The notes beneath the pieces are model-generated. The model saw nothing but the letters and a program-made list of their open reading frames with translations, had not been told where the DNA came from and ran no database searches. Position numbers and translations under genes: made by a program. From assembly GCA_017434185.1 (NCBI GenBank), contig JAFRFV010000187.1, positions 8,035-72,034 of the forward strand: 64,000 nucleotides of DNA, given 5' to 3'. This document shows, one piece after another, positions 21,706 through 44,013 of the stretch. Origin of the DNA: Coriobacteriales bacterium (GTDB lineage: Bacteria > Actinomycetota > Coriobacteriia > Coriobacteriales > RUG844). The first letter of the stretch is position 1. Each line of letters begins with the position of its first letter.

Positions 21706-21724
21706 TGGCGAAAGGTGGATCCAG

Positions 21725-22996
21725 ATGACCCAAACGAGATTGAACATCCACCACGTGGCCAGGATCGAAGGCCATGGCAACGTGAACATAGAGGTGCAGG
21801 ATGGCGTCTTGACGGACGTCGAGATGAACATCACCGAACCCGCGCGCATGTTCGAACAGATGGTGCGCGGACGTAGCTGCACGGAAGTCTCCTACATCGC
21901 GAGCCGCATCTGCGGCATCTGCTCTCCCAACCATGCCATCACCTCTCTCCTGTGCCTTGAGGATGCGATGGGCATCGAGGTGAGTGAGCGTACCTCCAAG
22001 CTGCGCTCCCTGCTCATCCGCGGTTCCTATCTGCAGAATCACGCCACCCACCTGTATGTGCTCGCTGCTCCGGACTACGTTGGGCTCCAGAGCGCCTTCC
22101 CGCTGGCGACCGCAGCACCCGATGTGCTCAGCCGTGCTTTGGAGATCAAGCGTCTGGGTAACGAGCTCTGCAACGCGGTTGGAGGTCGCAGCGTACATCC
22201 CAACACCTGCGTCATCGGTGGCTTCACCGCGGAACCCGACCCCAAGGTCCTGCTCGCCCTCGCCGATCGTCTCCAGGCGATCGCGGATGACTGCATCGCC
22301 ACGGGCGATCTGTTCGGTCATTTCGAGGTGCCCGATTTCAAGAGCCAGGGTGACCTTCTGTGCCTGGTGGAGGACGACGACTACGCTGTCATCTCCGGAC
22401 AGACCCGCGCTTTGCTCTCAGCGTGGACCCGTCCGGTGGGGGAGTACCGCGATTTCATCATCGAGCGCTCGCGTCCGTATTCCAACGCCAAGTTCTCCAC
22501 GCTTCCCAACGGCCGCACCTTCATGACCGGTGCGATCGCCCGCGTGAACCAGAGCTGGGGCAAGCTCTCACCCGCCGCCCGCATCGTCGCCGCCAAGGCG
22601 GGTCTCCGCCCCGTGTGGCTCAACAGTTTCAAGAACAACCTCTCGCAGGCCATCGAACTCGTTGACTGCGTCGAGCGCTGCGCTCAGCTCTGCCGCGAGA
22701 TCGCCGCTGACACCGGCAGCAGTGCCCCCGCTCCCTTCGAGTTCAAATCGGGCCATGGCGTCGCTGCCACGGAAGCTCCCCGCGGCACCGTCTACTATGA
22801 GATCGATGTGGACGATAAGGGCCGCGTGGAGTACGCCAACATCCTGACTCCCACCGCTCAGAGTCTTGCGAACCTTGAGAACGACCTGCGCCTGTTCGTT
22901 CCGCGGATCGTCGACCGTGATCCCGATACCTTCAAGATGCTGGTCGAGAAGCTCGTGCGTGCATACGATCCCTGCCTGTCCTGTGCCGTTCATTAG
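21725..22996 (+). CDS. [NiFe] hydrogenase large (alpha) subunit
   Basis: N-terminal HVARIEGHG, the L1 motif RICGICSPNH, and a C-terminal DPCLSCAVH followed directly by a stop. I moved the start to the ATG at 21725. Confidence 0.9.
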   Translation: MTQTRLNIHHVARIEGHGNVNIEVQDGVLTDVEMNITEPARMFEQMVRGRSCTEVSYIASRICGICSPNHAITSLLCLEDAMGIEVSERTSKLRSLLIRGSYLQNHATHLYVLAAPDYVGLQSAFPLATAAPDVLSRALEIKRLGNELCNAVGGRSVHPNTCVIGGFTAEPDPKVLLALADRLQAIADDCIATGDLFGHFEVPDFKSQGDLLCLVEDDDYAVISGQTRALLSAWTRPVGEYRDFIIERSRPYSNAKFSTLPNGRTFMTGAIARVNQSWGKLSPAARIVAAKAGLRPVWLNSFKNNLSQAIELVDCVERCAQLCREIAADTGSSAPAPFEFKSGHGVAATEAPRGTVYYEIDVDDKGRVEYANILTPTAQSLANLENDLRLFVPRIVDRDPDTFKMLVEKLVRAYDPCLSCAVH

Positions 22997-23157
22997 CCGG
23001 TATCGGTTACGTGAGGATGTAAAGCATCCGTTGATTCACGGAAATAGGATGGAGATGCACGTGCTGTGCTACACTTGAATACCAACCATCTGTCATGATG
23101 GTCGTCTTGTGTCGCATGCCGTCCTTCGGGACCCGTTAGTAGAAATGGATCGACATC

Positions 23158-24198
23158 GTGTCTATCTTCGATGCACTCTTCGCCAACTGGGCCAGTGACA
23201 TGGCCATCGACCTGGGTACCGCCAACACCCTTGTTCTGGTGCGCGGTCAGGGCCTCGTGCTCAACGAGCCCTCCGTCGTGGCCATCGAGCAGCAGGAGAA
23301 GCGCGTCCTCGCCGTCGGTTTGGATGCGAAGGACCTGTTGGGCCGCACTCCCGGCAATATCGTCGCCCTGCGTCCGCTGCGTGATGGCGTCATCGCCGAC
23401 TACGACGTCACCGAGGCGATGCTGCGCTATTTCATCAACAAGGCTCTGCCCCGTAAGTACCCCTGGCAGTCCAAGCCCCGCATCGTCATCTGCGTTCCCA
23501 CCGGTGCCACCAGCGTCGAGCGCAAGGCCGTCTACGAGGCCTGCATCGATGCGGGCGCCCGTCAGGCGTTCCTCATCGAAGAGCCCATGGCTGCTGCCAT
23601 CGGCGCTGGTCTTCCCGTTGAGGAACCCACCGGCTCCATGGTCGTCGACATCGGCGGTGGTACGAGCGAAGTCGCCGTCATCTCGTTCGGCGGTATCGTC
23701 GCGAGCACTCCGGTGCGTGTCGCCGGCAACGCCTTCGATGCGGCCATCCAGGAATATGCCAAGGAAGCCTACAACCTGGTGATCGGCGAGCGCACCGCCG
23801 AGGAGATCAAGATCAAGATCGGCTCGGCCGCTCCACTCCTTGAGGAACTCGATGCCGAGGTCTGCGGTCGCGACAACCTCACCGGCAGCCCCCGTACGAT
23901 CCGCTTCGAATCCGAAGAGATCCGCGATGCCCTCAAGCCCTGCGTCGACGAGATCGTCAAGGGTGTCAAGGCCACTCTGCGCGAGACCCCCGCTGATCTT
24001 TCCGCCGATCTCATGGAGTACGGCATCCTGCTCACCGGAGGTGGCGGACTGCTCCGTGGCCTCGATGAACGCATCATGGCCGAGACCGGTGTTCCCGTAT
24101 ACGTTTCCCCCACTGCGCTGACCAATGTGGTCGAAGGTTGCGCGAAGGTCCTCGAAGTCCCCGGAGCTCTCACTCAGCCTTATCTGCAGAATCGATAG
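23158..24198 (+). CDS. mreB: Rod shape-determining protein MreB
   Basis: Contains DMAIDLGTANTLV, DIGGGTSEVAVIS and LTGGGGLLRGLD. GTG start. Confidence 0.95.
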   Translation: MSIFDALFANWASDMAIDLGTANTLVLVRGQGLVLNEPSVVAIEQQEKRVLAVGLDAKDLLGRTPGNIVALRPLRDGVIADYDVTEAMLRYFINKALPRKYPWQSKPRIVICVPTGATSVERKAVYEACIDAGARQAFLIEEPMAAAIGAGLPVEEPTGSMVVDIGGGTSEVAVISFGGIVASTPVRVAGNAFDAAIQEYAKEAYNLVIGERTAEEIKIKIGSAAPLLEELDAEVCGRDNLTGSPRTIRFESEEIRDALKPCVDEIVKGVKATLRETPADLSADLMEYGILLTGGGGLLRGLDERIMAETGVPVYVSPTALTNVVEGCAKVLEVPGALTQPYLQNR

Positions 24199-24213
24199 CC
24201 AGGGCGTCCCATC

Positions 24214-25086
24214 ATGAGGATCATCGGCACCGCAAGGAAGAAGAACGCCACGGGGTGGTACTACCTCCTGGCCTTCGTCATCCTCTCCCTCGTCCTGCTC
24301 ACCTGTTGGGCGCGGGAAGGGGAGGATGGTGTGCTGCATGACGTCCGTAGCGGCAGCAAGGTCATCACGACGCCCTTATCCCACTTCGGTTCCATCCTGG
24401 GTGCCCCCTTCAGGGCCGTTGGCAACGCGTTCTCAAACATGGGAACCAGCCCCAGCGAGATCGCTGCGCTCAAGTACCAGAACGACGAACTCATGGCGCA
24501 GGTCATGCAACTCGAGGAATACCGCCAGGAGGCGGAGCGCCTACAGGGTCTGCTCGCCATCCGTGATGCCTACAACGTGCAGGCCGTGGGTGCCAGCGTG
24601 ATCGGCCGTTCGTCCAACAGCTGGAGCTTCTCCATCGAGATCAACAAGGGTTCGCGTGATGGCATCGAGGTGGGCATGCCCGTCATGAACTCCGCCGGTC
24701 TGATCGGTCAGGTCGAGGACGTGAGTTACATGTCCTCCACCGTTCGCCTGATCACCGATGAGAACAGTGGCGTCGCCGCCATGATCCAATCCTCCCGTGC
24801 CGAAGGCATCCTGAACGGTTCCATCAACGGCACTCTGTATTTGAACTACATCACTCGTGACCAGAAGGTGCAGGTTGGTGATGTCATCATCACCAGTGGC
24901 ATGGGTGGTGTGTATCCCAAGGGCATCGCCATCGGAGAGATCGTGAGCGTCGAAGGAGACGAGGGCGATCTGTACTACACCATCGTGGTGGCGCCTCTCA
25001 CGAGCGCCAGATACTCCGAGGAAGTCCTTGTACTGACCGGTGACGAGATCGAGGTCTCGCGTATCGACCAGCAGGCGGGTGATTAG
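24214..25086 (+). CDS. mreC: Rod shape-determining protein MreC
   Basis: N-terminal TM helix, a coiled-coil segment (LKYQNDELMAQVMQLEEYRQEAERLQ) and beta-rich repeats (GLIGQVEDV, ITSGMGGVYPKGIAIGEI). Confidence 0.9.
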   Translation: MRIIGTARKKNATGWYYLLAFVILSLVLLTCWAREGEDGVLHDVRSGSKVITTPLSHFGSILGAPFRAVGNAFSNMGTSPSEIAALKYQNDELMAQVMQLEEYRQEAERLQGLLAIRDAYNVQAVGASVIGRSSNSWSFSIEINKGSRDGIEVGMPVMNSAGLIGQVEDVSYMSSTVRLITDENSGVAAMIQSSRAEGILNGSINGTLYLNYITRDQKVQVGDVIITSGMGGVYPKGIAIGEIVSVEGDEGDLYYTIVVAPLTSARYSEEVLVLTGDEIEVSRIDQQAGD

Positions 25087-25089
25087 TCC

Positions 25090-25641
25090 ATGGAGGATAC
25101 CGACCTGCGCTTCTACCTGATCGTCTGCGTCATCTGCCTTCTGTTGCAGCTCATGGTGGCCCCCAACATCGCCATCAACGGCATCGTGCCCAACATCCTC
25201 TTCGTCCCGGTCACGCTGGCGGGTTTCCTCTACGACAGCCGTTGGGGTTGCACCGTGGGTTTCATCGCCGGCCTCCTGCTCGACCTGTTGGGTGTCGGGC
25301 CTCTTGGTGGCATGGCTCTCATCTGCTCCATCATGGGTTTCGCATGCAGTCTGCTTCCGCGCAGCATCTTCAGTGAGAGTTGGCTGTCGCCGGTGGGATG
25401 GTTCGCGCTGTGCGCACTGGGCGCCAACCTGGTCTATGGTCTGCTCCTGCTCATCATGGGCGAGGCGAGCAGCTTGGGCGGCATCCTGCTGTATCGCATT
25501 ATCCCCAATACGCTGTATGACAGCGCCTTCGCCTTCCTGGTGTACCCGTTCGTCTACTGGCAGCTCTCCCAGAACAAGCCCCGCATCCGCGCTGGCCACA
25601 GGGCGAGCCGTCGCAAGAGCAGCGGCAAGAAGCTCAAGTAG
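25090..25641 (+). CDS. mreD: Rod shape-determining protein MreD
   Basis: Polytopic membrane protein immediately downstream of mreC. Confidence 0.75.
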   Translation: MEDTDLRFYLIVCVICLLLQLMVAPNIAINGIVPNILFVPVTLAGFLYDSRWGCTVGFIAGLLLDLLGVGPLGGMALICSIMGFACSLLPRSIFSESWLSPVGWFALCALGANLVYGLLLLIMGEASSLGGILLYRIIPNTLYDSAFAFLVYPFVYWQLSQNKPRIRAGHRASRRKSSGKKLK

Positions 25642-25651
25642 GTGGTGGGGC

Positions 25652-27727
25652 GTGGAAGCTGCGATCAAAGCTGCGGTCGTCTCACTGCTCATCATCGTAC
25701 TGTTGGTAGTGGTGGCGGTTATCGTCAAGACAATCTACGACCGGCAGAAGCCTCTCATGCTGCGCGGTTCGAGGGAATCCGGTCGCAAGAAGGGCATCGG
25801 TGTCGCGCGCACCACCAAGACCCTACCCTCCACACAGAACACCGAGGATGAGGACTTCGGCGAGAAGAAATCCGTCTTCAAGCCCCGCTTCGCCTTCCTC
25901 GAGACTGGTGTCGTGGCCATTCTCGCGACGCTCTTCGTGAAACTCTGGTCGATGCAGCTCATCAATTCCGAATCCTATGCGAAGCGCGCGGATTCCAACC
26001 GCACCACCACCTTCACCACCCGCGCGGTGCGCGGGCGCATCTTCGACCGCAATGGTGTCGAGTTGATCGGCAATCGCATATCACTCGCCGTGGTCGCCGA
26101 TGCGGACGTTGCCAACAACCGCAACGTGGTACATCGTCTCTCCAATGTGCTGGGCATTCCGCGTCAGGCCATCCGCCAGAGCATCCGCGACGAAAGCGAG
26201 GGAGCCCAGGCCAAGCGCGTCGTGGCGACCGATGTCCCCATGCGGGCGGTCGCCTTCATCGAGGAACACCCCGGCATCTTCCCCGGTGTCTCCATCGAAT
26301 CCCGCACCGTGCGCACGTATCCCCAAGGTGATCTCGCCTGCCACGTGTTGGGCTACACCGGTGCCATCAGCGCCGAGCAGCTCGAGGAATCGCAGGTCAC
26401 GGAAGGTATCAGCTACGAGCCTGGCGACATCGTGGGCAAGTCCGGTGTCGAGCTCGCCTTCGAGAGCGTCCTCCAGGGTGTGCGTGGCGTGAACACCGTC
26501 GAGGTGGATGCCAAGGGCAACGTCGTATCCCAGATCGATCAGGTCGCCCCCCAAGCGGGCAAGGACATCCGTCTGACCATCGATGTCGATATCCAGAGAA
26601 CGGCTGAGGAGGCTCTGTACGAGGGACTCCAACGAGCACAGGATGATTACAAGATGTGGGATGCCACCGCTGGCGCTGTCATCTGTTTGGATCTGGAGGA
26701 CGGTGGTGTCCTTGCCATGGCGAGTTACCCCACCTACAGTCCCTCCAAGTTCATCGGCGGCATCACCAGCGAGCTCTGGGAATCCCTCACGAGCCCCGAA
26801 TCCGGCCAGCCCCTCAACAACCGTTGCATCAGCGGTCTCTACCCCGCTGCGTCCACCATCAAGCCTTTCGCGAGCATGACCGCCCTCAAGCACGGTATCG
26901 TCAACGATGGCTCGACATGGGTCTGCAAGGGTGTTTGGACCGAATTGGGCGAACAGTGGGCCAAGAAATGTTGGAGTACGAGCGGCCACGGGCGCATCGA
27001 CCTGCCCAATGCGCTCAGATATTCCTGTGACATCGCCTTCTACAACATCTCACTCAACTTCTATCGCAATCGAGCCGAGGAACCCAATGCCCTGCAGGAT
27101 GGACTCATGGAGTGGGGCTTCGGAAGCAAGACGGGCTTCGAGTTGACCGGTGAGGCCGTCGGGCGCATCCCCACCGCCGCTTGGAAGGCGGCGTACAACG
27201 TGGATACCCCGGAATATGCCACCTGGCTTCCCGGTGATATGGCCAACCTGATCATCGGCCAAGGTGACGTGCTCATCACACCTCTACAGAACGCGGTCGC
27301 CTATTCAGGTATCGCCATCGGCAAGTGCGTGAAACCGCATGTCCTCAAAGAGGTCCTGTCCAGCAAAGGTGAAGTGCTCATCAGCAAGGGCATGGAATAC
27401 TCCCATGAACCCGAATACAACGAGGATGACCTGAGTCTGGTGCGGTACGGTCTCAGATTGGTCGCGCGGGAGAACGGTTACATCCGTGACTTCCCCATAA
27501 CCACCGCCGGTAAGACCGGCACCGCCGAGGTCGCGGGCAAGGACGACTTCGGTTGGTACGTTGGCTACGCACCTGCCGGTGACCCCAAGTACCTGGTCGT
27601 CGCCCTTCTGGAGCAGGCCGGTTTCGGTGGCACCATCTGCCCGCCGGTCGTACGCAAGGTTCTCGCCAAATGTCTTGGGATCGAAGACAACGTCGAGTTC
27701 GGCGCGTACGTGGATGAGTCCAGGTGA
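25652..27727 (+). CDS. mrdA: Penicillin-binding protein 2 (elongasome transpeptidase)
   Basis: Contains an N-terminal TM helix plus the SxxK motif (ASTIKPF) and KTGTAEV. The only start upstream of the TM helix is the GTG at 25652. The track ORF start at 25292 overlaps mreD. Confidence 0.9.
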   Translation: MEAAIKAAVVSLLIIVLLVVVAVIVKTIYDRQKPLMLRGSRESGRKKGIGVARTTKTLPSTQNTEDEDFGEKKSVFKPRFAFLETGVVAILATLFVKLWSMQLINSESYAKRADSNRTTTFTTRAVRGRIFDRNGVELIGNRISLAVVADADVANNRNVVHRLSNVLGIPRQAIRQSIRDESEGAQAKRVVATDVPMRAVAFIEEHPGIFPGVSIESRTVRTYPQGDLACHVLGYTGAISAEQLEESQVTEGISYEPGDIVGKSGVELAFESVLQGVRGVNTVEVDAKGNVVSQIDQVAPQAGKDIRLTIDVDIQRTAEEALYEGLQRAQDDYKMWDATAGAVICLDLEDGGVLAMASYPTYSPSKFIGGITSELWESLTSPESGQPLNNRCISGLYPAASTIKPFASMTALKHGIVNDGSTWVCKGVWTELGEQWAKKCWSTSGHGRIDLPNALRYSCDIAFYNISLNFYRNRAEEPNALQDGLMEWGFGSKTGFELTGEAVGRIPTAAWKAAYNVDTPEYATWLPGDMANLIIGQGDVLITPLQNAVAYSGIAIGKCVKPHVLKEVLSSKGEVLISKGMEYSHEPEYNEDDLSLVRYGLRLVARENGYIRDFPITTAGKTGTAEVAGKDDFGWYVGYAPAGDPKYLVVALLEQAGFGGTICPPVVRKVLAKCLGIEDNVEFGAYVDESR

Positions 27728-28920
27728 TGGCCATGTTCGCATTACCAGGATCGAGCTCGAACAGCCAACGCATCATCAGACAGGAGCGCAAGCCCCTGTT
27801 CTTCCTCAACGTACCCTTCCTGCTCGCCGTCTTCGCCTTGGTGGCCTATGGTCTCATCGTGGTGCACAGCGCCGTCGAAGGCTCGGTCGATTACAGCTTC
27901 AGGCGCCAGGTCACCGGTGTCGTCCTAGGCTTCTGCGTGATGCTGCTGTTCTGGTCCTTCGACTATCGCAAGCTCGCCGGCTACGTGCCCCTGCTCCTGG
28001 GCCTCACCATCCTGCTGCTGCTCTCACCCCATCTTCCCTTCGTGGGCGTCTCGGTCAAGGGAGCGACTTCCTGGGTGAAGATATTCGGCGTGCAGTTCCA
28101 GCCAGGTGAGCCCGCCAAGATCGTCGCCATCCTTTTGATGGCTGCCGTGGTATCAAAGTATCGCGGCTATATCCGCACGGGCCGTGAGTACCTGAAGGTG
28201 CTGGGCATCTGCGCCGTGCCCTTCATCTGCTTCCTCTCCCAACCCGACCTTGGCAGCGGTCTGGTGACCATCGCCATCGCCGCCTGCATCCTGTTCGTGG
28301 GAGGCTCCAACCACAAGTGGTTGCTGCTCACGGTGGCCGCCGGCATCGCCTGCATTGCCCTTGTGCTGTGGATGGACCCCATCCTCGATGCCCACTTCGG
28401 CGAGGATGTGTTCATGAAGGACTACCAGATGAACCGTCTGCTGGTCTTCATCGACCCAGAGCTCGACCCAACCGGTGCGGGATACAATCTCGACCAGGCC
28501 AAGATAGCCATCGGCAGCGGCGGTCTTTTGGGCAAGGGTCTGGGCAATGGCACCCAGTCCACCCTGGGCTTCCTGCCCGAGGCTCCCACGGACTTCATCT
28601 TCTGTGTCATCGGAGAAGAGCTGGGCTTCGTGGGCACCTCCATGCTCCTGCTTCTCTATCTGGCTCTCTTCGTCACCGCCTTCCACATCTCCCTCAAGGC
28701 CAACGACCTCTTCGGTAGCCTCATCGTGATAGGTGTCATCGGTATGTGGGCCTTCCAGGTGCTGGAGAACATCGGCATGTGTTCGGGTCTTATGCCTATC
28801 ACGGGTATCCCGCTTCCATTCATAAGTTACGGTTCGTCATTCATGATCACCAACTTCATGGCACTTGGGCTTATCATGTCCGTGTGGACGCGCAGACCCA
28901 GCGCCATCAAGCGTCAATAG
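27724..28920 (+). CDS. rodA: SEDS-family peptidoglycan polymerase RodA
   Basis: FtsW/RodA/SpoVE-type polytopic protein (QPGEPAKI, GSGGLLGKGLGNGTQ, GLMPITGIPLPFISYGSS). Its start overlaps the mrdA stop. Confidence 0.9.
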   Translation: MMAMFALPGSSSNSQRIIRQERKPLFFLNVPFLLAVFALVAYGLIVVHSAVEGSVDYSFRRQVTGVVLGFCVMLLFWSFDYRKLAGYVPLLLGLTILLLLSPHLPFVGVSVKGATSWVKIFGVQFQPGEPAKIVAILLMAAVVSKYRGYIRTGREYLKVLGICAVPFICFLSQPDLGSGLVTIAIAACILFVGGSNHKWLLLTVAAGIACIALVLWMDPILDAHFGEDVFMKDYQMNRLLVFIDPELDPTGAGYNLDQAKIAIGSGGLLGKGLGNGTQSTLGFLPEAPTDFIFCVIGEELGFVGTSMLLLLYLALFVTAFHISLKANDLFGSLIVIGVIGMWAFQVLENIGMCSGLMPITGIPLPFISYGSSFMITNFMALGLIMSVWTRRPSAIKRQ

Positions 28921-28938
28921 GATCGGACAGGAGGAGAT

Positions 28939-30192
28939 ATGGCATCAGGATCGATCCCCGTCGATATCAAGGATATACTCAACGCCAGCAGCGAGGCGTC
29001 AAAGGCCCAGTCCGAAGCCGTCAAGGTGGATGTCTACGTCGACCTCAGCGCGAGTGAGCAACTCGTTTCCGCCGTCAAGCAGGCCTTCACTCCCCAGGCT
29101 GCCAATGCGTACCTGCACATCGAGGCTTTCGATGACAGCACCGTCGAGCTGCCGCAGATCTCCAGGGACACCGACCTCGTGGTGATCATCGCGGGCACGT
29201 CCATCACCGCCACGCGTCTGGCGAACCATGCGCACAACCTCAAGGTCCCCACGCTCACGGTCGCCATGACCTTATCCGATGCCCTCGCCAATTCCACCGC
29301 CTCCGGCTTCCCGCTGGTGGCGGCTGACACCATCCCCTTCATGCAGGCCAACGAGACCGCCGAGGACGCGGGGGAGGACTTCCTTCCCAATGTGGGCCAG
29401 TGGATCGTCGACCGCTGCAGCGCCAAGCGCCTTGCCTTCGCGAACGCCTTCGCGTTCATCCGCAAGCCGCTTGCTCTGGAGATCACCAAGAATACGAGCT
29501 TCCAGAACGGCGCACTGGGCGCTGTACTGTTCATCCCCGGTGCCGACATGCCGGTGATGACCGCCAACCAGATCAAGATGATCCTGCAGATTGCCGCTGC
29601 GTACGGTCAGAAGATCGGGCTGGAGCGTGCCAAGGAGCTCGCCGTCGTGGTTGGCGGTGGCTTCGCCTTCCGCACCATCGCGCGCGAGTTGGTAGCGCTC
29701 ATCCCGGCCTATGGCTGGGCGGTCAAAGCGGGTGTCGGTTACTCCGGCACCTTCGCCATGGGTCGCGCCGCTATCGAGTACTTCGAGAGTGGTGGCACCG
29801 TTGCGGGCGTTGGAGAGAAGGTCGTCAGCGCCCGGAACAAGGTCATGGAGAAGGCCAGGGAAGCCAAGAGCAGCTACGACGAGCATCGTCAGGAGCGCGC
29901 CAAACTCTCCGCAGCCAGCAAGCAGGAGAAGGCCGAATCCAAGCAGGCGAAGGCCGAATCCAAGCAACAGGCCAAGCAGGAGAAGGCATCGAAGGCCCAG
30001 GACGCCCCCAAGAAGGGTTTCACGTCTCCCGCGCGTCGCCATGCCAAGCGTGTGGTGAGCGAGGATGCACCCCGTAGGTTCCCGCTCAGGGGCTTCCCGC
30101 TGCACCGTGACGGCAAGGCTACGGACGATCCCATCTTGGTCGAGCCCCTTGAAGTCACGACCGTCGACCGTGAAGGCGGAGACCAGGAGTGA
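28939..30192 (+). CDS. Hypothetical protein with a DUF697-like hydrophobic segment and a Lys/Gln/Glu-rich repetitive tail
   Basis: 417 aa. GALGAVLFIPGADMPVMTANQIKMILQIAAAYGQKIG resembles DUF697 (family assigned from memory, not verified). The tail reads KQEKAESKQAKAESKQQAKQEKASK. It lies 18 nt after rodA and its stop overlaps the next gene's start. Confidence 0.6.
   Translation: MASGSIPVDIKDILNASSEASKAQSEAVKVDVYVDLSASEQLVSAVKQAFTPQAANAYLHIEAFDDSTVELPQISRDTDLVVIIAGTSITATRLANHAHNLKVPTLTVAMTLSDALANSTASGFPLVAADTIPFMQANETAEDAGEDFLPNVGQWIVDRCSAKRLAFANAFAFIRKPLALEITKNTSFQNGALGAVLFIPGADMPVMTANQIKMILQIAAAYGQKIGLERAKELAVVVGGGFAFRTIARELVALIPAYGWAVKAGVGYSGTFAMGRAAIEYFESGGTVAGVGEKVVSARNKVMEKAREAKSSYDEHRQERAKLSAASKQEKAESKQAKAESKQQAKQEKASKAQDAPKKGFTSPARRHAKRVVSEDAPRRFPLRGFPLHRDGKATDDPILVEPLEVTTVDREGGDQE
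29928..29969 (+). repeat. 21-bp tandem duplication (x2) inside the CDS
   Basis: GAAGGCCGAATCCAAGCAGGC is followed by GAAGGCCGAATCCAAGCAACA, encoding the KAESKQ repeat. Confidence 0.7.
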
Positions 30193-32045
30193 GCGAGGAG
30201 CTCTGGCAGCGGGTCGAACGCCACCTTCGTCAAGTCGAGAAGCCCAGCCGCTACATAGATCATGAGTTCGGCATCACCGTGAAGGACTCATGGGACTACC
30301 ATGCCGTCATGATCTACCCCGACACCTACGAGATCGGCCAGTCCAACCAGGGTCTGGCCATCATCCGTCAGGTCCTTAACGAGGTGCCCGGCATCTACTG
30401 TGAACGTGGCTACCTGCCCTGGACCGACATGGCGGACATCATGCGTGCCGAGCGCATCCCCCTGTTCTCGTTGGAGACCTACACGCCCATAGCGGATTTC
30501 GACCTGTTGGGTTTCACGCTGCCCCATGAGATGGCCATCAGCAACGTGCTCGAGTGCCTCGACCTCGCACAGTTGCCCCTGCTGGCGAGTGAGCGCGGCG
30601 AGGATGCACCCATCGTGATCGCCGGTGGCCCGTGCACCTACAATCCCGAACCCTTCGTCGACTTCATCGATGCCTTCATGATAGGGGAGGGCGAGGAGCT
30701 CGATCCCGAAGTCGCCATCCTGCATCGCCGTCTGCGCGACGAGGGCAAGAGCAAGCGTGAGATCCTGGAGGCCATGGCGGGTATCGAAGGTGTCTACGTG
30801 CCCAGTCTCTTCGAACGCGTGAGCGACGACTCCTACCAGCTGCGATGCACCGTTCCCGGTCTTCCGGACACGGTGAGGAAGCGCGTGTACGCCCAGTTCG
30901 CCCAGGTACCTCCGGATACCAGCCCCATCGTGCCCTTCGTCGAGGCGACCCATGACCGCCTGAGCATCGAGGTGTTACGCGGTTGCGCCCGCGGTTGTCG
31001 GTTCTGCCAGGCGGGCATGATCTACCGTCCCGTTCGCGAGCGTACGGCGGATCAGGTCGTCGCATCCGTCATCAACGGGCTCGCCTGCACCGGCTACGAC
31101 GAGGTCTCGCTCACGAGCCTCTCCACCACCGACCATTCCCAACTCGAGTCCATCCTGCGCCGGCTCAACAGCCGTCTGGATGGTTCCGGTATCGCCGTCT
31201 CCATTCCCTCGCAGCGCCTGGACGCCTTCGGCGTGGCCATGGCGGAACTGGTGGCCGGTAACAAGAAGGGCGGTCTCACCTTCGCCCCAGAAGCCGGCAC
31301 CCAGCGTCTGCGTGACATCATCAACAAGGGTGTGACCCAGGAGAACCTGGTCAATGCCATCCAGCGTTCCTTCGATGCGGGTTGGCGCCGCGTGAAGCTC
31401 TACTTCATGTGCGGGCTTCCCCTTGAGACCGACGATGATCTGCGAGGCATCGGGCAACTCGCCGGCTTGGCCTACGAGACGGCTCGCGATGCGGTTCCCC
31501 AACGGGATAAGGGCAGCGTCAAGGTGAGTCTCTCATGTGCCGTCTTCGTTCCCAAGACGCATACCCCCTTCCAGTGGTGCGGGCAGATCCCACGGGACGA
31601 AGTGAAGCGTCGCATCAACGTGATCCGCAGCTCGATACCCTATCGCGCCATCGATTTCCGCTGGCATGACCCGGGTACGAGCCTGCTCGAGGCGGTCATC
31701 TCCCGTGGCGATCGAAGCGTGGGCAAGCTCATCAAGCGCGCCTGGGAACTCGGCGCGCGCTTCGACGCGTGGACCGACCAGTTCCACTTCGAGTATTGGG
31801 CGCAGGCGGCACAGGACCTGGGGTACGACCTCCAGGCTATGGCCTCGCGCTCGTATACGGTCGACGAGGTCCTGCCCTGGCAGCACATCGATGCCGGCGT
31901 CACCTGGCGCTATCTCCAGCGCGAATGGGACCGCGCCCAGAAGGGCATCACCACCCCCGATTGCACTTTCCACGGCTGCACCGGCTGCGGTATCTGCCAA
32001 CGCCTTGGCTGCGAGAACGTATTGGCGGGTGAGCGCGATGGCTGA
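30189..32045 (+). CDS. Radical SAM protein with an N-terminal B12-binding-like domain (TIGR03960-like)
   Basis: 618 aa with CARGCRFCQAGMIY (CxxxCxxC) and a C-terminal Cys cluster (CTFHGCTGCGIC). It is paired with a downstream DUF2344-like gene. Confidence 0.8.
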   Translation: MSEELWQRVERHLRQVEKPSRYIDHEFGITVKDSWDYHAVMIYPDTYEIGQSNQGLAIIRQVLNEVPGIYCERGYLPWTDMADIMRAERIPLFSLETYTPIADFDLLGFTLPHEMAISNVLECLDLAQLPLLASERGEDAPIVIAGGPCTYNPEPFVDFIDAFMIGEGEELDPEVAILHRRLRDEGKSKREILEAMAGIEGVYVPSLFERVSDDSYQLRCTVPGLPDTVRKRVYAQFAQVPPDTSPIVPFVEATHDRLSIEVLRGCARGCRFCQAGMIYRPVRERTADQVVASVINGLACTGYDEVSLTSLSTTDHSQLESILRRLNSRLDGSGIAVSIPSQRLDAFGVAMAELVAGNKKGGLTFAPEAGTQRLRDIINKGVTQENLVNAIQRSFDAGWRRVKLYFMCGLPLETDDDLRGIGQLAGLAYETARDAVPQRDKGSVKVSLSCAVFVPKTHTPFQWCGQIPRDEVKRRINVIRSSIPYRAIDFRWHDPGTSLLEAVISRGDRSVGKLIKRAWELGARFDAWTDQFHFEYWAQAAQDLGYDLQAMASRSYTVDEVLPWQHIDAGVTWRYLQREWDRAQKGITTPDCTFHGCTGCGICQRLGCENVLAGERDG

Positions 32046-32739
32046 GGGTCAATTCCGCCTGCGCATCCGCTACTGCAAGAAGGGGCGCCTGTGCCATCTC
32101 TCGCATCTGGAACTCGTGCACGCTCAGGAGCGTATCATCCGTCGTGCCGGGCTGCCCTTCGCCGTGTCGCAGGGTTTCAGTCCCCATATGAAGCTCGCGT
32201 TCGGGCCCGCCATTGGCGTGGGCACCGGTAGTCTCGACGAGTATCTGGATGTCTGGCTCACCCGTTACGTTGACCCGCAGGAAGCCCTCGATGCCCTCCA
32301 TGCGGCACAGGTACCCGACCTCGCGGTGCTCCAGTGCTCCTATGTGGGGGATAAGGACGCCAGTCTCGTGACGGCGCTCACGGTCTCCCAGTATCTGATC
32401 GACCTGTTCCCTGCAGGCGAACAGCCGGATCTGGAAGCGCTTATCCAGAAAGGGCTCGATGATATCCGGGCTGCCGGCAGCATACAGGTGATGAAGAAGA
32501 ACAAGGTCAAGACATACGACCTCTCGCTGTCCACCGTCGAACCCGCGCGCATCATCTACTGCGAGGACGGGGTCTGTCAGATAGAGCTCATGTGCCGCAG
32601 CAGGGACGATGGTTCACTGCGTCCGGAACTGTTCGTTCAGGAACTCTCACGTGTTGCGGGCGTGGAACTTGTGATATCATGCCTCCTGCGCGTCGCCCAG
32701 TACGTTGAGGACCAAGAGGGTCTGCATCGTCTGGTATGA
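32038..32739 (+). CDS. Radical-SAM-linked protein (DUF2344 / TIGR03936-like)
   Basis: Contains RIRYCKKGRLCHLSHLELVHAQERIIRRAGLPFAVSQGFSPHMKLAFGPAIGVG. The ATG at 32038 overlaps the upstream stop by 8 nt. Confidence 0.75.
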   Translation: MAEGQFRLRIRYCKKGRLCHLSHLELVHAQERIIRRAGLPFAVSQGFSPHMKLAFGPAIGVGTGSLDEYLDVWLTRYVDPQEALDALHAAQVPDLAVLQCSYVGDKDASLVTALTVSQYLIDLFPAGEQPDLEALIQKGLDDIRAAGSIQVMKKNKVKTYDLSLSTVEPARIIYCEDGVCQIELMCRSRDDGSLRPELFVQELSRVAGVELVISCLLRVAQYVEDQEGLHRLV

Positions 32740-32879
32740 TCGCGTAAGAAGAAGCGGCAGATGCCATCCTTCACACCAGTGGCTTTCCCTCCCACGGTGA
32801 GAAGGTTGTCGTTCGTCGTCTTTTTCGCACGCTATAGGGATTTTGCCGTTGGGTTTCATCCGTCCGAGTGCTACCCTCG

Positions 32880-32908
32880 TTGACTTGTGGGGTGAGCGCG
32901 TGTAGGAT
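32880..32908 (+). promoter_or_regulatory. Candidate sigma-70-type promoter for rplU-rpmA-obg
   Basis: TTGACT-N17-TAGGAT, about 37 nt upstream of the rplU ATG. Confidence 0.5.
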
Positions 32909-32944
32909 GATGCCCCGCATGCGAATTTGACTGAAGGGTAAACG

Positions 32945-33253
32945 ATGTACGCAATAGTTTCTACGGGTGGCAAGCAATACAAGGTCGAGAAGGGCGATGT
33001 CATCGCCGTCGAGAAGCTCGATGTCGCCGATGGTGAGGAGATCTCCCTGGACGTTCTCTGCATTGCCGATGACGGCAAGGTCGTCGTCGATGCCGATGCT
33101 CTGGCGGCCGCCAAGGTCACCGCTCAGGTCGTCGAGCAGTTCAAGGGCGAGAAGGCTCTCGTCTTCAAGTTCAAGAAGCGCAAGGGTTACAAGAAGCTGC
33201 GCGGTCATCGTCAGCAGCTCACCCGCGTCAAGATCACCGATATCGCCCTCTAG
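32945..33253 (+). CDS. rplU: 50S ribosomal protein L21
   Basis: Begins MYAIVSTGGKQYKVEKGDVI and contains KKRKGYKKLRGHRQ. Confidence 0.95.
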   Translation: MYAIVSTGGKQYKVEKGDVIAVEKLDVADGEEISLDVLCIADDGKVVVDADALAAAKVTAQVVEQFKGEKALVFKFKKRKGYKKLRGHRQQLTRVKITDIAL

Positions 33254-33280
33254 GCGTCAAGACTAAGGTAGGTAGTTGAA

Positions 33281-35016
<1,736 letters not shown>

Positions 35017-35021
35017 GGGTC

Positions 35022-36161
35022 ATGAGCGAGAGTGCGCAGACCTCCAAGTACCGCCGTATCGTGGTGAAGGTTGGCACGAGCACCCTCACGCGCGGTACGG
35101 GACGCATCTCACAGCAGGCGGTGGATGGTCTTGTCGCCCAGATCGCCTGTCTGCGTGAACAGGGGACCCAGGTGCTTCTGGTCACCAGTGGTGCCATCAC
35201 CGCTGGGCTCGAGCGTCTGGGCCTGGAGTCCGCCCGCCCCAGTGACATGCCCAGTCTGCAGGCTGCCGCTGCCATCGGCCAGATCGAGCTCGCCCGCCGC
35301 TACGAGCATTCCGCTTCCTACTACCGTATGCTCATAGGTCAGGTTCTTCTCACCCGCAACGACACCGGTGATCGCCAGGCCTACCTGCATGCTCGTGACA
35401 CTCTGGAACGCCTGCTCGAGATGGGAGCGCTCCCGGTCATCAACGAGAACGACACCGTCTCCGTCGACGAGATCCGCTTTGGTGACAACGATACGCTTGC
35501 TGCCACCATCGCGACCCTGGTAGGTGCGGATCTGGTCATCCTGCTCTCCGACATCAAGGGTCTCTACACCGCGGATCCCCGCAAGCAGGAGGACGCTCGA
35601 TTCCTCGAGCGTGTCGAGGCCTTCACCCAGGATATCGTCGATGCGGCCGGCGGTGCCGGCAGTGTCACGGGTTCCGGTGGCATGGCCACCAAGGTCAACG
35701 CCGCCCGCGTGCTCATGCGTGCCGGTATCCCCATGGTCATCTGCGAAGGGGATCGCCCCAACGCCATCCTGGACATCGCCGCCGGCCGCTCTATCGGGAC
35801 GCTCTTCTCCCAGCAGGAGGGGTCCGACGTCGCTTCCGCCAAGAAGCTCTGGATCGCCCTTGGCAACAAGGCGCAGGGCAGTCTGGTGATCGATCAAGGC
35901 GCGGTCACCGCCCTTACCAAGAAGGGCTCGAGCCTCCTGCCCGTAGGTGTGAGTCGAGTGGAAGGTTCCTTCGAATCCGGCGATGTGGTCAATGTGGTGG
36001 ATGATAAGGGCCGCTTGGTCGCGCGTGGATTGGTGCGCTTCGACTGCGCTGAAGCGCAAGCTACGGCGGGCTGTAACAGCAGTCAGCTCCAGCAGGATGC
36101 CGGACTGTCGCATCTGGCTGGCAAGGATATCATCCATCGCGACGAGATGATCGTCTTCTAG
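35022..36161 (+). CDS. proB: Glutamate 5-kinase (with PUA domain)
   Basis: Contains IVVKVGTSTLT, VTSGAI and INENDTV, and ends in a C-terminal PUA region. Confidence 0.95.
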   Translation: MSESAQTSKYRRIVVKVGTSTLTRGTGRISQQAVDGLVAQIACLREQGTQVLLVTSGAITAGLERLGLESARPSDMPSLQAAAAIGQIELARRYEHSASYYRMLIGQVLLTRNDTGDRQAYLHARDTLERLLEMGALPVINENDTVSVDEIRFGDNDTLAATIATLVGADLVILLSDIKGLYTADPRKQEDARFLERVEAFTQDIVDAAGGAGSVTGSGGMATKVNAARVLMRAGIPMVICEGDRPNAILDIAAGRSIGTLFSQQEGSDVASAKKLWIALGNKAQGSLVIDQGAVTALTKKGSSLLPVGVSRVEGSFESGDVVNVVDDKGRLVARGLVRFDCAEAQATAGCNSSQLQQDAGLSHLAGKDIIHRDEMIVF

Positions 36162-36180
36162 CTGCGGGAAAGGAGCAGTC

Positions 36181-37446
36181 ATGGAGCAGATGAGCGAGGT
36201 CATGAGGATCGCCCTCCAAGCCCGGGAGGCTGCCAAGGGGCTGGGGCTTCTGAGCGGCGCCCAGCGTGATGCCATTCTGCTCGCGATGGCGGATGCGCTC
36301 GAGACGCAGCAGGAGCGGCTGCTCTCCGCGAATGCGCAGGACATGGAAGCAGCCCGTGCCAAGGGAACGCCGGCGCCGTTGCTCGACCGTCTCATGCTGG
36401 ATGCCAAGCGCATCGCCGGTATCGCCAACGCGTTGCGTGACCTGGCCGCATTGTCCGATCCCCTTGCCGGCGTTCTTGAGGAGCGCGTGCTCTACAACGG
36501 TATCAAGCTGCGCAAGGTCCCGGTTCCGCTGGGAGTCGTGGGCATGATCTACGAGGCCCGTCCCAATGTGACCGCCGACGCGGCCGGACTGTGCATCAAG
36601 ACCGGTAACGCCTGCATCCTGCGTGGTGGTAGCCTCGCTCTGCGTTCCAATCTGAGCATGGCGAAGGTGCTCGAGGACGCCGCCGTCGCTGCGGGCGCCC
36701 CCGTGAACTGCATCCAGGCGATCTCCGATCCCAGCCATGCGGCCACCGATGAGCTCATGACCCTGCACGGTCTCGTCGACGTGCTCATCCCGCGTGGCGG
36801 CGCGGGTCTCATCCAGCACTGCGTGATGAATTCCAAGGTGCCCGTCATCGAGACCGGTGTGGGCAACTGCCACACCTATGTGCACGCGAGTGCTGATCAG
36901 GACATGGCGTTGTCCATCATCCGCAATGCGAAATGCTCGCGACCCGGCGTTTGCAACGCCTGCGAGAGCGTGCTCGTGGATGAGGCCATCGCCGGTGCCT
37001 TCCTACCGCGGCTCATCGACATGCTGCTCGCGCAGGGCGTCGTGATCCACGGTGATGAGCGTGTGATCGCCGCAGCTGGTGACGCGGCGAATCGCATCAT
37101 TCCCGCAACCACCGATGACTGGGCACGGGAGTACCTCGACCTCGAGATCTCCATCCACGTGATCGCTGGAATCCAGGAGGCCATCGATCACGTGAACCGC
37201 TACGGGACCAAGCACAGCGAATGCATCGTCGCAGCCGATCAGGCGGCTTGCGAAGCCTTCCTGACCCAAATCGATGCAGCTGCGGTCTACGCCAATTGCT
37301 CCACTCGTTTCACTGATGGCGGGGAGTTCGGCCTTGGTGCCGAGATAGGCATCTCCACCCAGAAGCTGCATGCCCGTGGCCCCATGGGTCTTCAAGCGAT
37401 GACCAGCTACAAGTACCAGCTGCAAGGCGAGGGGCAGATACGTTGA
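36181..37446 (+). CDS. proA: Glutamate-5-semialdehyde dehydrogenase
   Basis: Contains YEARPNVT, NACILRGG, CNACESVLV and HSECIV motifs. Confidence 0.95.
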   Translation: MEQMSEVMRIALQAREAAKGLGLLSGAQRDAILLAMADALETQQERLLSANAQDMEAARAKGTPAPLLDRLMLDAKRIAGIANALRDLAALSDPLAGVLEERVLYNGIKLRKVPVPLGVVGMIYEARPNVTADAAGLCIKTGNACILRGGSLALRSNLSMAKVLEDAAVAAGAPVNCIQAISDPSHAATDELMTLHGLVDVLIPRGGAGLIQHCVMNSKVPVIETGVGNCHTYVHASADQDMALSIIRNAKCSRPGVCNACESVLVDEAIAGAFLPRLIDMLLAQGVVIHGDERVIAAAGDAANRIIPATTDDWAREYLDLEISIHVIAGIQEAIDHVNRYGTKHSECIVAADQAACEAFLTQIDAAAVYANCSTRFTDGGEFGLGAEIGISTQKLHARGPMGLQAMTSYKYQLQGEGQIR

Positions 37447-38072
37447 AACGCATCCTGCGCATAGGGATCATGGGTGGCACCTTCGATCCCATCCATCGGG
37501 GTCATGTCGGGGTTGCGAAGCAGGTGAAGGAGCGTTTCCAACTCGACCAAGTGCTCTTCATCCCCACGGGTGACCCCCATTTCAAGCAGGGGATGACCAG
37601 CGCTTCTCCCCAGGATCGTCTGGTGATGACCCAGCTCGCCATCCGGGATATCGACGGCTTCATCGCAAGCGATATGGAGGTATGCCGTGAGGGCGTCACC
37701 TACAGTGTCGATACGCTCGAGGAACTATCCCGCCTGCATCCCAACGATTCGTTCTTCTTCATCCTTGCCAGCGATGCGGCCACGCAACTCCATCGCTGGT
37801 ATCGGGTGGAACGTCTCGCCCAGCTCTGCGATTTCATCGTGGTCTCGCGTCCTGGGTATCCGTTCGACGAAGCGCTCATCCATAACCTTGGCCTCGTGCC
37901 GGGACTGCGTTACGTGCTCCTGGATGGCTTGAGCTACGACGTGTCCTCAACGGGCCTGCGGGAGGCGCTCGCAGCGGGAGAAAGCGTGGAGGATTGGCTC
38001 GACCCCGCTGTCGCGGAGTATATTCGCTCCCATGGACTGTATGTTGGTCATGAGAGCGATGGGAGGTCCTGA
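37443..38072 (+). CDS. nadD: Nicotinate-nucleotide adenylyltransferase
   Basis: Contains GIMGGTFDPIHRGH and VSSTGLR. Confidence 0.9.
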   Translation: MKRILRIGIMGGTFDPIHRGHVGVAKQVKERFQLDQVLFIPTGDPHFKQGMTSASPQDRLVMTQLAIRDIDGFIASDMEVCREGVTYSVDTLEELSRLHPNDSFFFILASDAATQLHRWYRVERLAQLCDFIVVSRPGYPFDEALIHNLGLVPGLRYVLLDGLSYDVSSTGLREALAAGESVEDWLDPAVAEYIRSHGLYVGHESDGRS

Positions 38073-38076
38073 TTCC

Positions 38077-38706
38077 ATGAGCCAAGCTTCCAAGGAACTC
38101 ATCCCCTGGGCGGAGCAGGCGATCCGCGAGCGCCTGAAGGGTGGCCGATTGGCGCATTCCTTCAGTGTCGCGGAAACCGCCGTCTCGCTCGCTTCGATCT
38201 ACGGCGAGGACCAGGATGACGCCCGCTTGGCTGGACTCCTGCATGATTGGGACAAGCAGCTCGGTGACGCGGAGCTGTTGGCGCGTGTTGCGGATCTTGG
38301 CCTCGAGCTCCCGCAGGAAGTGCTCGACATGCCCATACTCCTGCACGGACCCACTGCGGCGGCTGCGCTCAGGCGCGAGTTCCCGCAGATCCCCGAGCGC
38401 GTTCTGTCCGCCATCCATCTGCATACCGTCGCATCCGTTGAGATGTCGCCACTCGACATGATCATCTACGTGGCGGATAAGATTGAGCCCAAGCGGAGCT
38501 CACGTGACGCCCAGTTCATCCGTGACGAGGTGGGCCAGGTGAGCCTGCGTGAGCTCTTCATCGACGCTTACGGCTCCAGCATCATCCATCTGGTCAAACG
38601 CCATCGCTACATCTACCCCGGTGCCCTGGATGTCTGGAATCCACTGGTCACTGAATATCGCAAGTCACCGGCATACCGCGAACAGGCCCAGGGGCGCGCC
38701 AAATAG
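38077..38706 (+). CDS. yqeK: HD-domain phosphohydrolase YqeK
   Basis: HD motif LAGLLHDWDK, in the conserved position after nadD. I moved the start to the ATG at 38077. Confidence 0.8.
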   Translation: MSQASKELIPWAEQAIRERLKGGRLAHSFSVAETAVSLASIYGEDQDDARLAGLLHDWDKQLGDAELLARVADLGLELPQEVLDMPILLHGPTAAAALRREFPQIPERVLSAIHLHTVASVEMSPLDMIIYVADKIEPKRSSRDAQFIRDEVGQVSLRELFIDAYGSSIIHLVKRHRYIYPGALDVWNPLVTEYRKSPAYREQAQGRAK

Positions 38707-38755: not shown

Positions 38756-39169
38756 ATGGAGGGACTTTTGACTTCTAGGGAATACGCTCTGCTCGCCGCA
38801 TCCGCCGCCGATGCCAAGAAGGGCAGCGACATCATCATCCAGGATGTGTCCGAACTTCTGCAGATCACCGATTACTTCGTGGTGGTGACCGGGCAGAATG
38901 CCCGCCAGGTCGATTCGATCCAGGAGGCGGTGGAGGAGAAGCTCACCCAGGAAGCCGGCCTCAAGCCCATAAGCATCGAAGGATTGGATGGTCTGGATTG
39001 GGTGCTCATGGACTTCGGCTCCATCATCGTGCATGTGTTCCAGCCCGACATCCGCGATTTCTACCGTCTCGAGACCCTGTGGGGCGATGCTCCCATCGTC
39101 GACCTCTCCGAGGCGGGTATCCAGGAGCCCGTGTTCAGCCAGCGTATCCAGGAGTTCCTTGAGCGCTAA
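38756..39169 (+). CDS. rsfS: Ribosome silencing factor RsfS (iojap family)
   Basis: Contains ITDYFVVVTGQNARQV, DWVLMDFGSIIVHVF and YRLETLW. Confidence 0.9.
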   Translation: MEGLLTSREYALLAASAADAKKGSDIIIQDVSELLQITDYFVVVTGQNARQVDSIQEAVEEKLTQEAGLKPISIEGLDGLDWVLMDFGSIIVHVFQPDIRDFYRLETLWGDAPIVDLSEAGIQEPVFSQRIQEFLER

Positions 39170-44007: not shown

Positions 44008-44013
44008 CGCCTG

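Follow-up and report, generated by a model that had tools for sequence, protein, structure and literature searches.

The window analysed here, a 64-kb stretch of genomic DNA (G+C about 61%) from a Coriobacteriales bacterium, contains a gene for a radical S-adenosylmethionine (SAM) protein of family TIGR03960, which overlaps a gene for a DUF2344 protein of family TIGR03936. The pair is located between the cell-elongation (elongasome) genes mreB, mreC, mreD, mrdA and rodA and the block rplU-rpmA-obg. In the reading we favour, to which we give a probability of roughly 0.55, the two products form an orphan, RNA-directed radical SAM enzyme encoded in an inherited gene order. The hypothesis of an RNA-modifying enzyme follows from the permanent fusion or adjacency of its two parts, from the pseudouridine synthase fold predicted for the DUF2344 part, which lacks the catalytic aspartate, and from the persistence of RNase E/G as a neighbour.

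Eleven genes, mreB through obg, occupy the + strand of region 23158–35016 (Table 1). The first eight, mreB-mreC-mreD-mrdA-rodA-DUF697-rSAM-DUF2344 (rSAM denoting the radical SAM gene), form an almost gap-free string, with successive intergenic distances of 15, 3, 10, -4, 18, -4 and -8 nt, and its three distal genes are real. A preliminary description, made from the sequence, had reported three open reading frames (ORFs) after rodA, separated from it by 18 nt, overlapping each other by 4 and 8 nt and including a 21-bp repeat, all of which is as described. The 18 nt between the rodA stop (28920) and the 417-residue ORF contain the Shine-Dalgarno sequence GGAGGAG at 28930–36. The sequence GTGA combines the TGA stop of the DUF697-like gene with the GTG start of the radical SAM gene, giving the 4-nt overlap, and the radical SAM and DUF2344 genes share 8 nt. 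The spacing to rplU, put earlier at about 200 nt, is 205 nt. In an independent gene call, a Coriobacteriales metagenome-assembled genome (MAG; GCA_017431545.1) has the same 618-residue and 233-residue products as the window. Upstream, the identities of mreB, mreC, mreD, the gene for penicillin-binding protein 2 (PBP2) and rodA are backed by Pfam and NCBIfam; rodA overlaps mrdA by 4 nt. The mrdA start is most likely the GTG at 25652, within a longer ORF (25292–27727), because this codon lies 10 nt past the mreD stop and a hydrophobic anchor is encoded behind it.

Profile searches bear out all four family assignments of the preliminary description; the B12-binding domain itself stays below its gathering score (PF02310, 17.1 bits against 32.1). 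The 618-residue protein matches TIGR03960 ("rSAM_fuse_unch") with 719.9 bits against a cutoff of 462.3, its residues 11–607 aligning with positions 2–602 of the 605 in the model; the second-best NCBIfam match, TIGR04014, reaches 48.6 bits against a cutoff of 360. Two domains are delimited: Radical_SAM_N2 (PF19864, E 1e-56, residues 55–205) and Radical_SAM (residues 260–421). Both cysteine motifs noticed earlier are present. The CX3CX2C motif, within the CARGCRFCQAG-type sequence RGCARGCRFCQAG, is invariant in an alignment (A3) of 37 diverse radical SAM homologues. The C-terminal motif, CX4CX2CX2C within CTFHGCTGCGIC, has its first three cysteines conserved to at least 90% in the same alignment, and probably holds a second, auxiliary iron-sulfur cluster.

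The closest relatives of known structure are MgmA (PDB entry 9ccb), then RimO and MiaB, in each case with the alignment running over the radical SAM core. For MgmA it covers residues 262–432 (E 1.5e-13), the match to the N-terminal domain being weak. MgmA, a B12-dependent radical SAM enzyme, C-methylates a glutamine of methyl-coenzyme M reductase (PMC11796369). The TIGR04014 match given above belongs to this comparison, and only the core aligns (48.6 bits); the organisms and the gene context differ, MgmA has no DUF2344 partner, and cobalamin binding by the window protein is putative. With MiaB and RimO the window pair shares a modular logic, in which a radical SAM core is combined with a second cysteine cluster and a separate substrate-recognition domain. 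However, the extra cluster is C-terminal in the window protein and resides in the N-terminal UPF0004 domain in MiaB and RimO, while the place of their TRAM domain is taken by a domain with the predicted pseudouridine synthase fold. The protein falls outside the MiaB/RimO family, scoring 19.7 bits against 251 for TIGR00089 and 19.0 against 357 for the MtaB model, and Pfam finds neither a UPF0004 nor a TRAM domain in it.

The family is large: in a library of 50%-identity clusters, phmmer finds 3161 representatives with E ≤ 1e-30, and 11599 when the limit is relaxed to E ≤ 0.001. Among the 150 best-matching cluster representatives, about 120 are 796–1152 residues long, those scanned mostly having a C-terminal DUF2344 domain, and the two parts are fused in about four fifths of the 150. 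The split form seen in the window is found in nearly all fetched loci of Bacillota and Actinomycetota. Where genes that are separate in one genome are fused in another, their products are normally components of a single enzyme, and since the fused form prevails among the best-matching representatives, the radical SAM and DUF2344 proteins can be regarded as two halves of a single enzyme. The window pair does not differ in kind from the TIGR03960/TIGR03936 (PF10105) family, adjacent, overlapping genes being what the family definition expects. The preliminary description called the pair uncharacterised, and the literature searched defines no function for it, nor for DUF697. One representative, P0337 (796 residues), has an HD phosphohydrolase domain at its N terminus but lacks DUF2344; this may reflect a genuine fusion or an error of gene calling. 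A scan of fused homologues of unusual length for additional domains yielded this single HD-domain fusion, too slender a basis for further conclusions.

The 233-residue protein scores 148.5 bits on TIGR03936 (cutoff 71.9; "radical SAM-associated protein"), and its only Pfam match is DUF2344 (PF10105, E 5e-37, 127.9 bits against 23.8), which spans the profile from end to end (positions 1–176 of 176). Its AlphaFold2 (AF2) model has a predicted local distance difference test score (pLDDT) of 91.3 and a predicted template modelling score (pTM) of 0.87. When the model is compared with the PDB by Foldseek, nearly all top matches are pseudouridine synthases (TruA, Pus3, Pus1 and Cbf5), with E-values from 8e-8 to 1e-4, a probability of 1.0 and TM-scores normalised to the query (TMq) of 0.5–0.6; tandem ACT-like proteins score far lower (TMq about 0.25). 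The protein is therefore predicted to have the core fold of the pseudouridine synthases, with two alpha/beta subdomains forming a cleft. This relation is not new, since Pfam already places DUF2344 in the pseudouridine synthase domain clan (PMC7955657).

A cross-phylum alignment of 62 DUF2344 sequences from several phyla shows H23, R36, G46 and E68 to be invariant, with K14, L24, R32, P49, the leucine column at window residue I59, G62, K156 and R218 conserved at 90–98%. Five of the eleven universally conserved residues are basic (K14, R32, R36, K156 and R218). No invariant aspartate column is present among the 62 sequences; the best candidate, D71, is 81% Asp and 19% Glu, and the acidic residue conserved throughout is E68. 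Conservation is highest in the loop SQGFxPH (residues 44–50), which follows helix 1 and strand 2 and has low pLDDT at residues 45–50. From the order of the secondary-structure elements and the topology of TruA, its GFxPH segment would lie at the position of the pseudouridine synthase catalytic loop, which presumably corresponds to the GRTDxGVH motif of TruA. DUF2344 resembles TruA, Pus1, Pus3 and Cbf5 in predicted fold, but lacks significant sequence similarity to them and an invariant aspartate, and, unlike them, invariably comes with a radical SAM enzyme, either as its partner or fused to it. Because no aspartate is invariant, DUF2344 does not appear to be an active pseudouridine synthase.

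At window positions 32638–32709 (DUF2344 residues about 201–224, the C-terminal strand), an Eggerthellaceae-weighted consensus reads TTRTDTLIE. Equating its TRTD with the GRTDAGVH of TruA was rejected: hhalign gives a probability of 0.1, the aspartate is not conserved across phyla and the window itself has RVAQ, while R218 is kept in 98% of sequences. The pairing of TRTD with GRTD is probably a coincidence.

The gene neighbourhood was mapped by tblastn in 82 loci, 80 of them gathered with the diverse radical SAM alignment and two via DUF697 homologues. In keeping with the preliminary description, the map shows the pair together with RNase E/G and rplU-rpmA-obg genes. In 36 of 55 loci, the ORF directly behind that of DUF2344 is RNase_E_G. 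Five diverse queries place RNase E/G at most 3.5 kb downstream of the pair in 33 of 45 loci from outside Coriobacteriia, and L21/L27 genes are downstream in 20 of 41. Elongasome genes (MreB, PBP2 or RodA, upstream and on the same strand) accompany the pair in 13 of 39 loci of other lineages. In four loci of Calditrichota/KSB1 type the two parts are one protein of 852–889 residues, whose gene is directly followed by that of RNase E/G in all four and then by rplU-rpmA in two, whereas the genes upstream bear no relation to one another or to the elongasome. What stays next to the pair from phylum to phylum is RNase E/G, then L21/L27, and not the elongasome.

In Bacillota, Actinomycetota, Chloroflexota and Atribacterota an old gene order is recognisable: elongasome, variable genes, radical SAM, DUF2344, RNase E/G, rplU, rpmA and obg. 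The eight-gene string of the window is the form that this order takes in Coriobacteriia. As this order recurs across lineages, the contact between the elongasome genes and rplU-rpmA-obg is old, and the radical SAM pair lies inside it. Bacillus subtilis has the order mreBCD-minCD-spoIVFA-spoIVFB-rplU-ysxB-rpmA-spo0B-obg, so that in both B. subtilis and the window the elongasome genes precede rplU-rpmA-obg and share their strand. In Clostridial loci an M50 (SpoIVFB-like) peptidase gene comes immediately before the radical SAM pair, and rng-rplU-rpmA-obg (rng encoding RNase E/G) after it; overall, the ORF directly upstream of the radical SAM gene is Peptidase_M50 in 14 of 62 loci, often from Clostridia. 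Compared with the B. subtilis and Clostridial orders, this locus lacks the min, M23 and M50 peptidase, rng and Prp protease genes and has the DUF697-like gene, and rodA and the radical SAM pair are therefore almost contiguous. RodA ends at most 300 nt from the radical SAM start in seven non-Coriobacteriia loci as well (Selenomonadaceae L069, Acidaminococcales L071, Atribacteria L043, Nonomuraea L052 and L058, and Bacillota L029 and L046). The Clostridial M50 peptidase is about 290 residues long and is sometimes accompanied by an M23 peptidase (for example at 9055–9975 in locus L025 and 9065–9925 in L048). Its ORF sits in the slot of B. subtilis SpoIVFB, a slot that is filled in Coriobacteriia by the DUF697-like gene, with its weak EcsC-like match.

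The preliminary description had presented the attachment to the elongasome and the absence of RNase E/G as what sets this locus apart; neither does. The string mreBCD-mrdA-rodA-DUF697-rSAM-DUF2344 is found in eight of the ten Coriobacteriia-like loci sampled (a group in which Collinsella is counted once and L059, labelled only "Actinomycetes", is included). Where at least 6 kb of upstream sequence is available, the order mreB-mreC-(mreD)-PBP2-rodA-DUF697-rSAM-DUF2344 is seen in all eight loci; two with short upstream sequence (L004 and L047) have other genes there. An Anaerolineae MAG (L022) has the same string, DUF697 gene included. The 64-kb window does lack an RNase E/G gene, as had been said (six tblastn queries, one from Coriobacteriia and five diverse ones), and such absence is common in Coriobacteriia. 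After DUF2344, rng is full-length in L047 and L059, short in L002 and absent from Collinsella, L001, L003, L021 and the window. The L002 gene (13660–14586) encodes 308 residues, against 400–570 elsewhere, and was missed by the five diverse queries at E 1e-6. This short gene, together with the absence from Collinsella and the window, suggests that rng is decaying at this position in Coriobacteriia. In L001 and L003 both rng and the adjacency to rplU are lost and the pair is retained. The arrangement in the window is typical of its class and represents inherited gene order, and the survey rejects the idea of a unique rearrangement.

In the favoured reading, the enzyme would comprise four modules: a B12-binding-like N-terminal domain, the radical SAM core with its CX3CX2C motif, the C-terminal CX4CX2C cluster and a pseudouridine-synthase-fold module for substrate recognition. 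The DUF2344 module, with the catalytic aspartate lost and the basic residues kept, would most likely bind and present RNA, leaving the chemistry to the radical SAM half; by precedent of MgmA, RimO and MiaB this would be C-methylation or methylthiolation. The persistence of RNase E/G and L21/L27 as neighbours makes a stable RNA, either rRNA or tRNA, the likely substrate, or else a transcript that is handled in large-subunit biogenesis. The contact with rodA would reflect inherited gene order plus loss of intervening genes (SpoIVFB-like M50 peptidases in Clostridia), rng having been lost downstream too. We infer the RNA binding, second cluster, chemistry and pathway of the pair from what the analysis shows, namely the gene models, family membership, fusions, synteny counts, predicted fold and conserved residues.

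Several observations weigh against this reading. The link to RNA comes from a predicted fold and from gene neighbourhood, and the fold similarity is moderate (TM-scores of 0.5–0.6, with root-mean-square deviations of 6–10 Å). Aligning the DUF2344 alignment (A1) with E. coli TruA by hhalign gives no significant result (probability 0.1), and a search of PDB sequences with the A1 profile by hmmsearch gives no match at E up to 10. MgmA and RimO, two of the nearest solved relatives, modify protein, which makes a protein substrate possible. The pair persists in the window and in Collinsella with no adjacent RNase E/G, so there is no strict dependence on it, and the RodA-radical SAM adjacency, which recurs in several phyla, could reflect selection rather than history. 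The 80 loci are the best tblastn matches to the window protein and over-sample Bacillota and Actinomycetota, and the promoter and terminator scans described below use E. coli-type consensus motifs, which are weak evidence in Actinomycetota.

A more far-reaching version of the RNA reading, which we regard as doubtful, would have the pair carry out an undescribed radical SAM modification of RNA, by means of a catalytically dead pseudouridine synthase domain that recognises the RNA and together with RNase E/G, during maturation of rRNA or the large subunit. In Coriobacteriia, capture of its transcription by the mre-rodA operon would then keep the expression of wall elongation and ribosome maturation in step, and the DUF697-like protein might provide the physical link.

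The main rival, which we consider unlikely, is that the pair modifies a protein after translation, with L21, L27 and RNase E/G as candidates and DUF2344 as a protein-docking module that has no more than a resemblance to pseudouridine synthases. The two solved cores MgmA (a protein glutamine C-methyltransferase) and RimO (the S12 methylthiotransferase), the conserved adjacency to rplU-rpmA and RNase E/G, and the missing invariant aspartate of DUF2344 are all in keeping with it. But MiaB, a tRNA enzyme, is also a near relative, the basic character of 5/11 universally conserved DUF2344 residues points to RNA, and the pseudouridine synthase fold is not known outside RNA-binding proteins. Besides, the pair is kept in L001 and L003 although their rng and the adjacency to rplU are gone.

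A terminator-like hairpin is located at 23085–23102, 5' of mreB, and a scan from mreB to DUF2344 finds no terminator-like site on the + strand between the genes of the string. The sole promoter-like site in any intergenic gap found by a consensus scan, TTGACT-17-TAGGAT at 32880–32908, lies ahead of rplU; a second + strand match, at 26712–26740, is internal to mrdA. In the gap before rplU there is no Rfam leader at the gathering threshold, nor at E ≤ 1. This 205-nt gap is likely to be the boundary to an rplU-rpmA-obg unit. Given the short or negative gaps, the common strand and the lack of terminator-like sites between the genes, the three genes are probably co-transcribed with rodA by read-through from the mre promoter. 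Co-expression with RodA and PBP2, proposed in the preliminary description, is thus plausible as far as sequence goes, but such read-through by itself implies no envelope function.

An envelope role would make the DUF697-like, radical SAM and DUF2344 proteins accessory parts of the elongation machinery, translated together with PBP2 and RodA and acting on a lipid or peptidoglycan precursor or regulating the elongasome. The tight coupling to rodA (the 18-nt gap and the overlapping starts), the retention of the string in Coriobacteriia, the closeness of RodA to the radical SAM gene in the seven loci from Negativicutes, Atribacteria, Nonomuraea and other Bacillota, and the occurrence of the DUF697-like gene only directly after rodA are what one would expect. 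Yet 26 of 39 non-Coriobacteriia loci have no elongasome gene in the 6–10 kb fetched upstream, and B. subtilis, which is not known to carry the pair, still has mreBCD upstream of rplU-rpmA-obg, so that the juxtaposition is older than any functional tie. Pfam and NCBIfam find no membrane or envelope domain in the radical SAM or DUF2344 protein (hydrophobic segments were not scanned). Of the two links suggested in the preliminary description, to envelope growth or to ribosome biogenesis, the ribosome or RNA option is the one favoured; the envelope option is unsupported, because the fused Calditrichota/KSB1-type loci keep RNase E/G downstream, with unrelated genes upstream, and because DUF2344 has the predicted fold of an RNA enzyme. 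By this cross-phylum comparison and the fold, an envelope link is less likely than an RNA role, and we rate it below a protein substrate as well.

Least probable of all is that the neighbourhood is uninformative and the pair a housekeeping enzyme, for example of cofactor or small-molecule chemistry, in a slowly rearranging part of the chromosome: about a quarter of the non-Coriobacteriia loci are without RNase E/G downstream and half without L21/L27, many small molecules are substrates of radical SAM enzymes that have a B12-binding-like domain, and one representative has an HD domain, but the adjacency to RNase E/G survives where every other neighbour differs, as a functional link would produce, and a lasting tie, by fusion or adjacency, to a domain of the pseudouridine synthase fold suggests that the substrate is a macromolecule.

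The match of the DUF697-like protein to DUF697 (PF05128), at 30.8 bits, lies just above the gathering score (27.7) and covers only positions 27–90 of the 162 in the profile (about 40%), at residues 184–247; the match to EcsC (PF12787) is weak. There are 546 homologues at E ≤ 0.001, the nearest 51% identical and most with a precomputed PF05128 annotation; the few with a named source are all from Coriobacteriia (Eggerthellaceae, Raoultibacter and Coriobacteriia). The AF2 model (pLDDT 83) consists of a five-stranded alpha/beta domain (residues 25–135), a helical bundle (residues 141–353) and a disordered end. Invariant residues of the core, which is highly conserved over residues about 150–290, include T186, N190, P200, G201, D203 and P205, whereas the tail is unconserved among homologues and has pLDDT below 50 from residue 358. 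The family assignment made in the preliminary description holds, but to call the core hydrophobic overstates it: no clear transmembrane helix is present, the maximum Kyte-Doolittle value over 19 residues being 1.36, against a threshold of 1.6 and a value of 2.38 for RodA, so that an integral membrane protein is not supported. A P-loop, GxxxxGK[ST], was not found in the N-terminal domain in the alignment (A2) of homologues. DUF697 in Pfam is sometimes associated with GTPase domains, and other members have transmembrane segments. The window protein shares the Gly/Ala-rich helical core of DUF697/EcsC proteins, but is without a clear transmembrane helix and P-loop, and its charged tail is lineage-specific. 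Foldseek matches of the model are too weak and generic to identify its fold (IRG GTPases, SIS and receiver domains, TM-scores of 0.2–0.3), and a profile search of PDB sequences gives nothing meaningful. In the mapped loci the gene is always between rodA and the radical SAM gene, and context therefore cannot decide which of the two is its partner. We regard it as an insert in the rodA-radical SAM slot, mainly of Coriobacteriia and related MAGs; its product could be a membrane-peripheral scaffold associated with the elongasome.

Table 1. Positions in the window of the genes from mreB to obg and of features within them.
Feature	Position	Strand	Remarks
mreB	23158..24198	+	Pfam MreB_Mbl, E 1e-134; first gene of the tight eight-gene string
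mreC	24214..25086	+	Pfam MreC, E 1.6e-46
mreD	25090..25641	+	Pfam MreD, E 1e-10
mrdA (PBP2 transpeptidase)	25652..27727	+	PBP_dimer and Transpeptidase domains
rodA (SEDS glycosyltransferase)	27724..28920	+	TIGR02210 rodA_shape, 352.3 bits (cutoff 336.7)
DUF697-like ORF, 417 residues, ATG start	28939..30192	+	PF05128
N-terminal alpha/beta domain, residues about 25-135	29011..29343	+	AF2 secondary structure; moderately conserved
Conserved helical core, residues about 141-290	29359..29808	+	contains all invariant columns, A168 to A277
Variable Lys/Ala/Glu-rich tail	29809..30189	+	long predicted helix to residue 353, then disordered
21-bp tandem repeat in tail (KQEKAES / KQAKAES)	29919..29966	+	TRF: period 21, 2.3 copies, 96% match
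Radical SAM ORF, 618 residues, GTG start	30189..32045	+	TIGR03960
CX3CX2C motif (C266, C270, C273)	30984..31007	+	within RGCARGCRFCQAG; radical SAM [4Fe-4S]
C-terminal CX4CX2CX2C motif (C592, C597, C600, C603)	31962..31997	+	within CTFHGCTGCGIC; putative second cluster
DUF2344 ORF, 233 residues, ATG start at 32038	32038..32739	+	TIGR03936
Most conserved DUF2344 loop, SQGFSPHMK	32167..32193	+	G46 100%, P49 93%; contains no Asp
Intergenic gap, 205 nt	32740..32944	+	promoter-like site inside
rplU	32945..33253	+	TIGR00061, above cutoff
rpmA	33281..33541	+	TIGR00062, above cutoff
obg	33592..35016	+	ObgE model, above cutoff

The surroundings of the string contain further recognisable genes. Directly 5' of mreB, at 18974–22996, are genes for a Fer4_22 iron-sulfur protein, a DHODB-like FAD/NAD-binding subunit, an Oxidored_q6 small subunit and a NiFeSe hydrogenase large subunit, which together look like a soluble multi-subunit [NiFe] hydrogenase; the same four-gene cluster is also found 5' of mreB in the Eggerthellaceae locus L001. 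Positions 35013–38706, 3' of obg, contain proB, proA, nadD and an HD-domain gene, in the order of locus L002, where RsfS comes next, and match the usual ribosome-associated neighbourhood obg-nadD-yqeK-rsfS. Further downstream are a Y-family DNA polymerase (IMS) gene on the - strand (39166–40449), tyrS (42254–43477) and, just behind the latter, a T-box leader (44013–44268, 105.7 bits), located 5' of a gene for a 938-residue class I aminoacyl-tRNA synthetase of Ile/Leu/Val/Met type (44340–47156). On the other side, a - strand gene for an EF-G-family GTPase (719 residues, 14249–16411) adjoins a tRNA gene (14095–14167).

By itself, the locus adds little, being an ordinary instance of a system that is catalogued but functionally orphan. 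E. coli does not have the TIGR03960 family and B. subtilis is not known to have it, a possible reason for its lack of an assigned function. What is gained is a more precise hypothesis on the entire family, namely that of an RNA-modifying enzyme tied to RNA processing or to the biogenesis of the 50S subunit. If true, the pair would represent a new enzyme architecture in RNA modification, and its long-conserved neighbourhood would be explained.

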